Shown: positions 7,294 through 54,237 of the stretch, one piece after another | Position numbering within the stretch: position 1 is the stretch's first letter | How the letters are laid out: each line of letters opens with the position of its first letter | Assembly: GCF_011045215.1 (NCBI RefSeq) | Contig: NZ_CP049201.1 | Strand: one strand, 5' to 3' | From: Escherichia coli | GTDB lineage: Bacteria > Pseudomonadota > Gammaproteobacteria > Enterobacterales > Enterobacteriaceae | Length of the DNA stretch: 64,000 bases | The notes under the pieces: model-generated | Told to the model about the DNA's origin: nothing | Database searches by the model: none | Seen by the model: only the letters and a program-made list of their open reading frames with translations | Position numbers and translations under genes: made by a program

Positions 7294-8835
<1,542 letters not shown>

Positions 8836-8903
8836 CCTTAAAGAAGCGTTCTTTGTAGTGCTCACACAGATTGTCTGATGAAAATGAGCAGTAAAACCTC
8901 TAC

Positions 8904-8980
<77 letters not shown>

Positions 8981-9022
8981 AATTTGCACGGCAAATTTGA
9001 AGAGGTTTTAACTACATGTTAT

Positions 9023-9098
9023 GGGGCTATAGCTCAGCTGGGAGAGCGCCTGCTTTGCACGCAGGAGGTCTGCGGTTCGATCCCGCATAGCTCCACCA
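9023..9098 (+). tRNA. alaU: tRNA-Ala (TGC)
   Basis: GGGGCTATAGCTCAGCTGGGAGAGCGCCTGCTTTGCACGCAGGAGGTCTGCGGTTCGATCCCGCATAGCTCCACCA; 76 nt with G3:U70. Confidence 0.97.
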
Positions 9099-9161
9099 TC
9101 TCTGTAGTGATTAAATAAAAAATACTTCAGAGTGTACCTGCAAAGGTTCACTGCGAAGTTT

Positions 9162-9174
9162 TGCTCTTTAAAAA
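9162..9174 (+). promoter_or_regulatory. 16S-23S spacer boxA element
   Basis: TGCTCTTTAAAAA in the spacer downstream of tRNA-Ala, at the usual position of the second boxA. Confidence 0.6.
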
Positions 9175-9272
9175 TCTGGATCAAGCTGAAAATTGAAACA
9201 CTGAACAACGAAAGTTGTTCGTGAGTCTCTCAAATTTTCGCAACTCTGAAGTGAAACATCTTCGGGTTGTGA

Positions 9273-12175
<2,903 letters not shown>

Positions 12176-12268
12176 ACAACGCCGAAGCTGTTTTGGCGGA
12201 TTGAGAGAAGATTTTCAGCCTGATACAGATTAAATCAGAACGCAGAAGCGGTCTGATAAAACAGAATT

Positions 12269-12388
12269 TGCCTGGCGGCCGTAGCGCGGTGGTCCCACCT
12301 GACCCCATGCCGAACTCAGAAGTGAAACGCCGTAGCGCCGATGGTAGTGTGGGGTCTCCCCATGCGAGAGTAGGGAACTGCCAGGCAT
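12269..12388 (+). rRNA. rrfD: 5S ribosomal RNA (first copy)
   Basis: TGCCTGGCGGCCGTAGCGCGGTGGTCCCACCTGACCCCATGCCGAACTCAGAAGTGAAACG...GCCAGGCAT; 120 nt. Confidence 0.97.
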
Positions 12389-12400
12389 CAAATTTAGCGT

Positions 12401-12476
12401 GCTGATATGGCTCAGTTGGTAGAGCGCACCCTTGGTAAGGGTGAGGTCCCCAGTTCGACTCTGGGTATCAGCACCA
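12401..12476 (+). tRNA. thrV: tRNA-Thr (GGT)
   Basis: GCTGATATGGCTCAGTTGGTAGAGCGCACCCTTGGTAAGGGTGAGGTCCCCAGTTCGACTCTGGGTATCAGCACCA; 76 nt. Confidence 0.95.
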
Positions 12477-12513
12477 CTTTTTAGGTTAAAGTTCGGCAGA
12501 TTAGAAAAGAATT

Positions 12514-12633
12514 TGTCTGGCGGCAGTAGCGCGGTGGTCCCACCTGACCCCATGCCGAACTCAGAAGTGAAACGCCGTAGCGCCGATGGTAGTGTGGGGC
12601 CTCCCCATGCGAGAGTAGGGAACTGCCAGACAT
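12514..12633 (+). rRNA. rrfF: 5S ribosomal RNA (second copy)
   Basis: TGTCTGGCGGCAGTAGCGCGGTGGTCCCACC...GCCAGACAT; 120 nt; differs from rrfD at a few positions including compensatory changes in the terminal helix. Confidence 0.95.
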
Positions 12634-34515: not shown

Positions 34516-36456
34516 ATGAGATTAACGACGAAATTTTCGGCCTTTGTTACGCTGCTCACCGGGTTAACAATTTTTGTGACTTTGCTGGGCTGTTCGCTAA
34601 GTTTCTACAACGCCATTCAGTATAAGTTTAGTCATCGCGTTCAGGCGGTGGCGACGGCGATTGATACCCACCTTGTGTCGAATGACTTCAGCGCATTAAG
34701 GCCACAAATTACCGAATTAATGGTGTCAGCAGATATCGTTCGTGTAGACCTGCTGCATGGTGATAAACAGGTTTATACCCTGGCCAGAAATGGTAGTTAT
34801 CGTCCGGTTGGCACCAGCGATCTGTTTCGTGAACTGAGCGTTCCGTTGATAAAGCATCCGGGGATGTCGTTGCGTCTGGTTTATCAGGATCCGATGGGCA
34901 ACTATTTCCATTCGTTGATGACCACCGCGCCGCTCACGGGGGCGATTGGCTTTATCATTCTTATGCTCTTTCTGGCGGTACGCTGGTTACAACGGCAACT
35001 TGCCGGGCAAGAATTGCTGGAAACCCGGGCTACTCGTATCTTAAACGGTGAGCGTGGCTCTAATGTGTTGGGAACCATCTATGAATGGCCGCCCACAACC
35101 AGCAGTGCGCTGGATACGCTGCTTCGTGAAATTCAGAACGCACGCGAACAACACAGCCGTCTTGATACGCTGATCCGCTCTTATGCCGCACAGGACGTGA
35201 AAACCGGCCTCAATAACCGACTCTTTTTCGATAATCAGTTAGCAACGTTACTGGAAGATCAGGAGAAAGTAGGTACCCACGGGATCGTGATGATGATTCG
35301 TCTGCCGGATTTCAATATGTTGAGCGATACCTGGGGGCACAGCCAGGTTGAAGAACAGTTCTTCACTCTGACGAATCTGCTGTCGACATTTATGATGCGC
35401 TACCCTGGCGCACTGCTGGCGCGTTACCACCGCAGTGATTTTGCTGCGCTGTTACCGCACCGGACGTTAAAAGAGGCAGAGAGCATCGCCGGTCAGTTAA
35501 TCAAAGCCGTCGATACCTTGCCGAACAATAAAATGCTCGATCGCGACGATATGATCCACATTGGTATCTGCGCCTGGCGTAGTGGTCAGGATACCGAGCA
35601 GGTAATGGAACATGCAGAGTCTGCCACGCGTAATGCGGGATTGCAGGGCGGCAATAGCTGGGCTATTTACGATGACTCGTTGCCTGAAAAAGGACGCGGT
35701 AATGTTCGCTGGCGTACGCTTATCGAGCAAATGCTCAGTCGCGGCGGCCCGCGCCTTTATCAAAAACCGGCGGTTACTCGCGAAGGTCAGGTTCATCATC
35801 GCGAACTCATGTGCCGCATCTTTGATGGTAATGAAGAGGTTAGCTCGGCGGAGTATATGCCGATGGTCTTGCAGTTTGGCTTATCGGAAGAGTATGACCG
35901 TCTGCAAATCAGCCGTCTTATTCCACTATTGCGTTACTGGCCAGAGGAAAATCTGGCGATTCAGGTTACCGTTGAGTCGCTGATTCGCCCGCGTTTTCAG
36001 CGTTGGCTGCGCGATACGTTAATGCAATGTGAAAAATCACAACGAAAACGCATAATTATTGAACTTGCAGAGGCCGATGTAGGTCAACATATCAGTCGTT
36101 TACAACCTGTTATTCGTTTAGTGAATGCTTTAGGGGTACGGGTAGCCGTCAACCAGGCTGGTTTGACGCTGGTAAGCACCAGTTGGATCAAAGAACTTAA
36201 TGTTGAGTTACTCAAGCTCCATCCGGGGCTGGTCAGAAACATTGAGAAGCGAACGGAGAACCAGCTGCTGGTTCAAAGCCTGGTGGAAGCCTGCTCAGGG
36301 ACCAGCACCCAGGTTTACGCCACCGGTGTGCGTTCGCGAAGCGAGTGGCAGACCCTGATTCAGCGCGGTGTTACAGGCGGGCAAGGGGATTTTTTCGCGT
36401 CCTCACAGCCACTTGATACTAACGTGAAAAAATATTCACAAAGATACTCGGTTTAA
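34516..36456 (+). CDS. csrD: RNase E specificity factor CsrD (degenerate GGDEF-EAL protein)
   Basis: 646-aa ORF with N-terminal TM segments followed by GGDEF-like and EAL-like domains. Confidence 0.9.
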   Translation: MRLTTKFSAFVTLLTGLTIFVTLLGCSLSFYNAIQYKFSHRVQAVATAIDTHLVSNDFSALRPQITELMVSADIVRVDLLHGDKQVYTLARNGSYRPVGTSDLFRELSVPLIKHPGMSLRLVYQDPMGNYFHSLMTTAPLTGAIGFIILMLFLAVRWLQRQLAGQELLETRATRILNGERGSNVLGTIYEWPPTTSSALDTLLREIQNAREQHSRLDTLIRSYAAQDVKTGLNNRLFFDNQLATLLEDQEKVGTHGIVMMIRLPDFNMLSDTWGHSQVEEQFFTLTNLLSTFMMRYPGALLARYHRSDFAALLPHRTLKEAESIAGQLIKAVDTLPNNKMLDRDDMIHIGICAWRSGQDTEQVMEHAESATRNAGLQGGNSWAIYDDSLPEKGRGNVRWRTLIEQMLSRGGPRLYQKPAVTREGQVHHRELMCRIFDGNEEVSSAEYMPMVLQFGLSEEYDRLQISRLIPLLRYWPEENLAIQVTVESLIRPRFQRWLRDTLMQCEKSQRKRIIIELAEADVGQHISRLQPVIRLVNALGVRVAVNQAGLTLVSTSWIKELNVELLKLHPGLVRNIEKRTENQLLVQSLVEACSGTSTQVYATGVRSRSEWQTLIQRGVTGGQGDFFASSQPLDTNVKKYSQRYSV

Positions 36457-39469: not shown

Positions 39470-40063
39470 ATGACTTCTCTGTATTTAGCTTCCGGTTCTC
39501 CGCGTCGTCAGGAGTTACTTGCGCAACTTGGCGTGACCTTTGAACGTATTGTTACGGGCATTGAGGAGCAGCGTCAGCCGCAGGAGAGCGCGCAGCAGTA
39601 TGTTGTGCGTCTGGCGCGCGAGAAAGCACGGGCAGGTGTCGCGCAAACGGCGAAGGATCTCCCGGTGCTGGGTGCGGATACTATCGTTATCCTGAACGGA
39701 GAAGTGCTGGAGAAACCGCGCGACGCAGAGCATGCGGCGCAGATGTTGCGCAAATTATCGGGTCAGACCCATCAGGTGATGACGGCAGTGGCGTTGGCCG
39801 ACAGCCAGCACATTCTCGATTGCCTGGTGGTCACCGATGTGACTTTCAGAACGTTAACAGACGAAGACATCGCGGGCTATGTCGCCAGCGGTGAACCGTT
39901 AGATAAAGCAGGTGCATACGGTATTCAGGGGCTGGGTGGCTGTTTTGTCAGGAAGATAAATGGCAGCTATCACGCCGTAGTCGGCTTACCGCTGGTTGAA
40001 ACGTATGAATTATTAAGTAATTTTAACGCACTGCGTGAGAAAAGGGATAAACATGACGGCTGA
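39470..40063 (+). CDS. yhdE: Maf-family nucleoside triphosphate pyrophosphatase YhdE
   Basis: 197-aa [31 protein letters not shown]...; Maf family. Confidence 0.92.
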
Positions 40064-51437: not shown

Positions 51438-51710
51438 ATGAATATTTATACCTTTGATTTTGATGAGATTGAGAGTCAGGAGGATTTTTATCGTGACTTT
51501 AGCCAAACCTTTGGTCTGGCGAAAGATAAGGTGCGCGATCTCGACTCACTATGGGATGTGTTAATGAACGATGTCCTGCCGCTACCACTTGAGATTGAAT
51601 TTGTTCATCTGGGAGAGAAAACGCGTCGCCGTTTTGGCGCGTTAATATTGCTGTTTGATGAGGCAGAGGAAGAGCTGGAAGGGCATTTGCGTTTTAATGT
51701 TCGTCATTAG
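51438..51710 (+). CDS. yhcO: Barstar-like protein YhcO
   Basis: 90-aa acidic [49 protein letters not shown]...; barstar-family immunity-protein fold recognised from sequence. Confidence 0.8.
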
Positions 51711-52029: not shown

Positions 52030-52393
52030 GATTTTTACCTCGACATAATCTTTTTGCTGGGTCTTTGTTTCGTGACCCTTATCACAAAATCAAGTATACA
52101 CTAATTATTGGGCTAATTAATACCACGCTAACTGTTTCTGTTGATACTAAGTGTTAAAAATGTGAATTTTAATAACAAAAAAGAATTAAAAATACGGTTA
52201 TTTATCTTTAATTCTAGTATTTTCAATTAGATAATGAATTTTGCATAATGTGCTTTTTTTACCGTATGTATTCATTGTGTGAATGACATGTCGCAGTAAA
52301 ACGCACTATTCGTTAAATTAATCGCAGGGGAAAGCAGGGGGTTGAGAGGGATAAGCAACATTTTCCCCGCCGCCAGAAGCGACGGGGCAGAGA

Positions 52394-52867
<474 letters not shown>

Positions 52868-52885
52868 TCACCCGATATGGTGGTT

Positions 52886-52926
52886 GATACAACATTATTG
52901 TGCATACAGATGAATTTTTATGCAAA
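52886..52926 (-). promoter_or_regulatory. Tandem ARG boxes (ArgR autoregulation) in the argR promoter
   Basis: Reverse strand reads TTTGCATAAAAATTCATC followed by TGTATGCACAATAATGTTGTAT, both fitting the TnTGAAT-w4-ATTCAn ARG-box pattern, 20-60 bp upstream of the argR ATG. Confidence 0.7.
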
Positions 52927-53223
52927 CAGTCAGCCCTGAAGAAGGCTGAAATAATGTTATGAAAGAGCGGGATTTTATCAAATTTCGTTATTGAGAAACA
53001 TGCCTGCGTCACGGCATGCAAATTCTGCTTAAAAGTAAATTAATTGTTATCAAATTGATGTTGTTTTGGCTGAACGGTAGGGTATATTGTCACCACCTGT
53101 TGGAATGTTGCGCTAATGCATAAGCGACTGTTAATTACGTAAGTTAGGTTCCTGATTACGGCAATTAAATGCATAAACGCTAAACTTGCGTGACTACACA
53201 TTCTTGAGATGTGGTCATTGTAA

Positions 53224-54237
<1,014 letters not shown>

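Follow-up and report, generated by a model that had tools for sequence, protein, structure and literature searches.

The element at positions 52889..52926 (minus strand) of the E. coli sequence analyzed here is the already known argR operator of E. coli K-12. It consists of two tandem ARG boxes, a strong one and a weak one, and is very probably bound by ArgR in such a way that the promoter proximal to argR would be occluded, resulting in negative autoregulation. The window referred to below is the entire stretch of 64,000 nucleotides that was analyzed. The assignment as an operator is supported by the identity of the gene, by a weight matrix constructed without argR, by a statistical excess over null sequences, by identity with K-12, and by the conservation of sequence, spacing, and position. 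Since the element is real, deeply conserved, and the same as in K-12, it is an ordinary operator. Its recovery carries little weight beyond annotation, as it re-identifies the classical operator for negative autoregulation. It can be used as a positive control, in which a sequence-only reading placed a true transcription factor site to within 3 nt.

The argR locus and its two ARG boxes

The coding sequence of argR occupies 52394..52864 on the minus strand, divergent from mdh, and encodes a protein of 156 amino acids. It is annotated as argR in RefSeq, and the A of its ATG is found at window position 52864. The open reading frame matches NCBIfam NF003457 (ArgR) with a score of 289.8 bits against a cutoff of 194. 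The malate dehydrogenase gene (mdh) was identified by a profile match at 53299..54237 on the plus strand. Of 5426 complete E. coli genomes, 5425 contain the 909-nt stretch from argR to the start of mdh, with the two genes annotated as argR and mdh. A comparison with the K-12 argR promoter had been suggested in the first-pass annotation and bears out its reading: the whole mdh–argR intergenic region of 434 bp is without difference from K-12 MG1655, and the operator is the same, base for base, as the K-12 control region (3384641..3384678). The only three DNA differences from MG1655 are located within argR. All three are synonymous, and the ArgR protein is therefore that of K-12.

A Shine–Dalgarno-like sequence, GGGTGA, was read from the sequence at 52868..52873 (minus strand); its GGT is kept in at least 90% of 22 aligned Enterobacterales. 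On the sense strand, the DNA 5' of the argR ATG reads ...ctgTTTGCATAAAAATTCATCtgTATGCACAATAATGTTGTatcaaccaccatatcGGGTGActtATG. An Rfam scan of the mdh–argR intergenic region gave no match. Elsewhere in the window, an rRNA operon is located at 7294-12631 (16S, two tRNAs, 23S, 5S, a tRNA, and a second 5S), with an Rfam match to StyR-44 at 9166-9265, immediately before the 23S gene. A 90-residue open reading frame at 51438-51710 (plus strand) occupies the position of K-12 yhcO (annotation: putative barnase inhibitor) and has no NCBIfam match at E ≤ 0.001.

On the argR sense strand the operator reads TTTGCATAAAAATTCATC-tg-TATGCACAATAATGTTGT. The distal (promoter-distal) box TTTGCATAAAAATTCATC is located at 52909..52926, the 2-bp spacer tg between the boxes at 52907..52908, and the weak proximal (promoter-proximal) box TATGCACAATAATGTTGT at 52889..52906, all on the minus strand. 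The pair lies 25-62 nt upstream of the argR ATG, in agreement with the 20-60 bp first proposed. The interval given at that time, 52886-52926, ended at the correct nucleotide and began 3 nt too far out, the true start being 52889. The palindromic form TnTGCAT-w4-ATTCA that had been ascribed to both boxes is followed exactly by the distal box; the proximal box has the left half of this form but not the right, which is ATGTT. This degenerate half agrees with ATTCA at 2 of 5 positions. Relative to the consensus WNTGAATWWWWATTCANW the distal box departs at 2 positions, and a consensus scan of the window returned it among 15 matches versus 7.9 expected.

A position weight matrix was constructed from 18 boxes of nine other K-12 operators, with argR left out. 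The control regions used for training were those of carA, argF, argI, argA, argG, argD, argC/E, artJ, and artP, and the box-pair model was obtained by iterative refinement starting from the textbook consensus. The pairs selected for carAB, argF, argI, and argECBH are the boxes described in the literature, whose strings were found verbatim in K-12. The training boxes score 8.2-22.5 bits. A matrix scan of this kind had been named as a check on the two boxes, and its outcome is divided. The distal box scores 15.5 bits, which is inside the range of the training boxes and ranks second among 63,983 window positions. The proximal box is low at 6.45 bits, ranks 53 in the window, and falls under all 18 training boxes (the weakest being 8.2 bits).

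The claim that two adjacent ARG-box-like elements stand upstream of argR is nonetheless upheld by the score of the pair. With the 2-bp spacer the tandem totals 22.0 bits and is the best tandem in the 64-kb window, the runner-up reaching 13.7 bits. A score of 22.0 was reached in 0 of 200 Markov-1 nulls of 64 kb, for which the maximum was 19.0, and in 26 of 20,000 sequences generated under a stricter null, for which the AT-rich intergenic region of 434 nt (38% G+C) itself served as the model. The outcome was unchanged when argF, the paralogue of argI, was dropped from the training set. The register is also defined by the matrix. At a spacing of 2 bp the proximal box reaches +6.5 bits, at 3 bp it falls to -13.5 bits, and because of the latter value the pair would total just 2.0 bits in the 3-bp register, which was rejected for the argR boxes on this ground.

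The possibility that AT-rich promoter DNA resembles ARG boxes by chance, with no function related to ArgR, has to be weighed against these values. In 25% of the 64-kb nulls there is at least one box that matches the distal one in strength, and comparable isolated boxes occur in coding DNA at two places in the window. Because a single box of this quality is not rare, the significance of the element rests on pairing, position, and conservation together. The tandem frequencies in both sets of nulls argue against coincidence, as does the conservation described below.

Two isolated ARG-like boxes were recorded in the window, each without a partner. One is located at 40004-40021 in yhdE (15.7 bits) and the other at 36423-36440 in the 3' end of csrD (14.1 bits), the genes being identified by mapping to K-12. 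The maximum single-box score of the Markov null is 14.4 ± 1.9 bits per 64 kb. Given null maxima of comparable size, both boxes probably arose by chance, and they were set aside as ArgR sites since both are isolated in coding DNA.

Conservation upstream of argR

Among complete E. coli genomes, 5368 of 5425 have the 60-nt operator segment with 100% identity. In the one variant that was inspected, the change precedes the distal box by 5 nt and leaves both boxes untouched. A broader survey was made with one genome per species and comprised 79 gammaproteobacterial argR loci of approximately 2.86 kb each. In 58 of the 79, the top-scoring tandem of the entire locus falls within the 300 nt preceding argR, a segment that makes up about one-tenth of its length. 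Boxes of at least 15 bits number 41 in the 200 nt upstream of the argR homologues (2.69 per kb) and 5 elsewhere in the same loci (0.02 per kb), an upstream enrichment of more than 100-fold. In addition to the Enterobacterales, strong boxes are found upstream of argR in Shewanella, Pseudoalteromonas, Pasteurellaceae, and Endozoicomonas. Unlike in the Enterobacterales, the best partner box in these more distant groups is often missing or placed at 3-bp spacing, and the start codon is at another distance. The argR gene itself belongs to the conserved core of the gammaproteobacterial ArgR regulon (PMC5343134), and this core membership in the RegPrecise reconstruction (Leyn et al. 2016, PMC5343134) is reproduced by the locus survey.

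An alignment was prepared for 22 Enterobacterales genera, ranging from E. albertii to Providencia and Photorhabdus. The sole invariant block 5' of the ribosome binding site and start codon is formed by the core of the distal box, TTG(C/A)ATAAAAATTCA, together with the left half of the proximal box. The element is thus invariant in 22 genera amid diverged intergenic DNA, and boxes are enriched more than 100-fold at this position. A chance likeness has a negligible probability and is excluded by this conservation.

The arrangement of the pair is conserved along with its sequence. A spacing of 2 bp outscores spacings of 1, 3, and 4 bp in 23 of 23 Enterobacterales loci that have the distal box. 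The end of the distal box is 43-48 nt from the argR ATG in 22 of these 23 loci. Of the proximal box, the left half (TGCA(T/C)AAT) is kept across the Enterobacterales and the right half within the Enterobacteriaceae only. In other members of the Enterobacteriaceae the proximal box attains 9-15 bits, in the same 2-bp register; its score is only about -1 to 3 bits in Pectobacterium, Brenneria, Photorhabdus, Providencia, and Rosenbergiella.

The fixed distance to argR bears on whether the boxes have some other role, either in the control of the divergent mdh gene or as an accessory site for recombination like that of ColE1 cer. The divergent synteny of mdh and argR is conserved across the Enterobacterales, and ArgR assists recombination at cer as an accessory factor (PMC6245113), both of which would suit such a role. 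The boxes are, however, 373 nt from the mdh start codon and 25 nt from that of argR, and their distance of 43-48 nt to the argR ATG hardly varies between loci, which makes a different role highly improbable. The cer site uses the same protein and the same type of box as the argR operator, but it has one box and functions in recombination, whereas at argR two boxes stand in tandem and keep a fixed distance to the start codon.

A direct repeat, AATGCATAAGCG / AATGCATAAACG, was observed in the mdh-proximal half of the intergenic region at 53115-53126 and 53168-53179, 53 bp apart. On either strand, the ATGCAT core of each repeat has the score of a strong ARG half-site. Retention of the repeats is limited to Escherichia, with one copy in Citrobacter, and for this reason they were not added to the operator as extra half-sites. 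They may represent a candidate site for a regulator of mdh.

Putative promoter elements and the proposed repression

The two boxes contain a promoter-like arrangement. A -35-like hexamer of a putative promoter, TTGCAT, was read from the sequence at 52920..52925 (minus strand), inside the distal box, and a -10-like hexamer, CACAAT, is located 17 nt after it at 52897..52902 (minus strand), inside the proximal box. In most relatives the latter hexamer is CATAAT. The arrangement TTG(C/A)AT-17-(-10-like) is kept in 23 Enterobacterales loci, the relatives having TTGNAT-17-CATAAT. A scan of 52300..53400 for sigma-70 promoters placed TTGCAT-17-CACAAT below the threshold, and the -35 hexamer matches TTGACA at 3 of 6 positions. 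Transcription from this promoter would be predicted to start near 52888-52891.

The location of TTGCAT-17-CACAAT inside the boxes fits autorepression by promoter occlusion. In the proposed mechanism an arginine-loaded ArgR hexamer would bind 52889..52926 through the strong distal box and the weak proximal box, separated by the 2-bp spacer. The boxes would hold the -35-like TTGCAT and the -10-like CACAAT of the promoter nearest argR. Because these hexamers lie inside the boxes, bound ArgR would exclude RNA polymerase and lower the transcription of argR. Autorepression by ArgR had been put forward in the first-pass annotation, and it gains support from the assignment of the gene as argR, from a tandem score unsurpassed in the window, from the conserved site and register, and from the identity with K-12.

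Autoregulation of argR in K-12 was reportedly described by Lim et al. 1987 (Lim, Oppenheim, Eckhardt & Maas, PNAS 84:6697), with two promoters of which the one overlapping the operator is autoregulated, and arginine-dependent binding of ArgR and repression in vivo in K-12 were reportedly observed in the same work and in Tian et al. 1992. The occlusion model with two promoters would agree with this account. A literature search for explicit statements of argR autoregulation in E. coli and for names of the argR promoters provided indirect support only, and neither argR nor mdh is named in the text of the ChIP-exo paper. The operators of strongly repressed ArgR targets overlap the -35 and/or -10 elements (PMC6640053). 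At carAB P2 the binding of ArgR and that of RNA polymerase are mutually exclusive (PMC6245113).

The weakness of the proximal box allows for a variant in which only the distal box, with or without the left half-site of the proximal box, is truly recognized by ArgR. This is rather unlikely, and so to the same degree is its corollary that the proximal box has been kept mainly as a -10 element and that ArgR represses chiefly at the -35 region. Such a variant would account for the low proximal score (6.45 bits in E. coli, with values of about -1 to 3 bits among the distant genera) at loci where CATAAT is nevertheless kept 17 nt after TTGNAT. It would also account for the right half ATGTT, with its 2 of 5 matches to ATTCA, and for the survival outside the Enterobacteriaceae of the left half alone, which is the -10-like hexamer. 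The scores of 9-15 bits in the Enterobacteriaceae, obtained consistently at a spacing of 2 bp and in no case at 1, 3, or 4 bp, speak for recognition of both boxes, as would footprints reported to cover both argR boxes. ArgR hexamers are also described as binding two boxes cooperatively (PMC6245113). We regard this variant as a refinement of promoter occlusion at the tandem operator and not as a contradiction of it.

A second promoter-like site, TTGATA-16-TAACAT, is located at 52954..52981 (minus strand), upstream of the boxes and outside of them. This putative promoter is the only sigma-70-like match in 52300..53400, and it is at consensus level. The block that contains it, TTGATAAAAT...TTTCATAACATTATTTCAG, is kept in the Enterobacteriaceae and absent outside this family. 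Transcription from this site is predicted to start near 52947, which would place the boxes at about +21 to +58. In the occlusion model the upstream promoter, being outside the boxes, would escape repression and would probably provide a basal floor of repressor.

The same site could instead be the relevant promoter of argR, with ArgR bound at about +21 to +58 stopping the elongating polymerase. Its standing as the only consensus-level sigma-70 match, its retention in the Enterobacteriaceae, and the downstream position of the boxes are in line with a roadblock of this kind. Other ArgR targets provide precedents to the contrary: ArgR bound at carAB P2 lets through polymerase from P1, which is 67 nt upstream (PMC6245113; PMC6524683), and at lrp, where ArgR binds downstream of the start, its direct effect is small (PMC6640053). 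In view of carAB and lrp a roadblock at argR is unlikely, and we consider it less probable than the variant with incomplete recognition of the proximal box. Moreover, the upstream block is missing outside the Enterobacteriaceae, where the boxes and TTGNAT-17-CATAAT persist. Occlusion of the promoter inside the boxes is the preferred explanation.

An imperfect palindrome was also observed at 52996-53019, reading TGCATGCC-GTGACGCA-GGCATGTTT in the argR sense. It is approximately 140 nt upstream of the argR ATG and precedes the predicted start of the upstream promoter by approximately 57 nt. When its conservation was checked (52998..53019) in the Enterobacteriaceae, CGTGAnnnAGGCATGTT (one arm and the center) was found to be kept, and the palindrome was not. 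The palindrome may be a candidate binding site for some regulator.

Relation to other ARG operators

The canonical ARG operators of argF, argI, argA, argECBH, argD, argG, carAB P2, artJ, and artP are recognized by the same repressor. These operators and that of argR are composed of 18-bp imperfect palindromes of the form wnTGAATwwwwATTCAnw, arranged in tandem and overlapping promoter elements, which at argR are putative, as the second box there is a weak match. The argR operator differs from the canonical set in three respects. Its spacer is 2 bp, whereas that of the canonical operators is 3 bp. Its second box is weaker than each of the 18 boxes in the nine other operators. The left half is TGCAT in both argR boxes, in contrast to TGAAT in the canonical operators. 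The 2-bp case among ARG operators is presumably argR itself. The strict form with a 3-bp spacer is not found at argR, and the spacing lies within the published range, which allows 2 or 3 bp between the two 18-bp boxes of an ArgR site (Cho et al. 2015, PMC4381063). As a minor comparative point, argR autoregulation has two unusual traits that are conserved across the Enterobacterales, the 2-bp spacer and the weakness of the second box.

The proximal box of Escherichia also differs from that of most relatives at one position. Position 7 is C (CACAAT) in Escherichia, E. albertii, and Citrobacter and T (CATAAT) in 19 other Enterobacterales loci. The C lowers both the match to a -10 element and the score of the box, which is about 6.3-6.5 bits versus 9-15 bits in other Enterobacteriaceae. 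The change to CACAAT hints at a lineage-specific weakening of the promoter and the operator.

The argR operator may, as a tentative proposal, be a conserved, detuned variant of the ARG arrangement, built across the Enterobacterales on the 2-bp register (20 bp from center to center) and having only about one and a half good boxes. Within this proposal, and no less tentatively, Escherichia and Citrobacter could have fixed a T-to-C change at the conserved position 7 that weakened the box together with the -10 hexamer (CATAAT to CACAAT). If the operator is detuned in this manner, autoregulation of argR could be graded and of lower affinity, as opposed to the switch-like repression of the biosynthetic operators.
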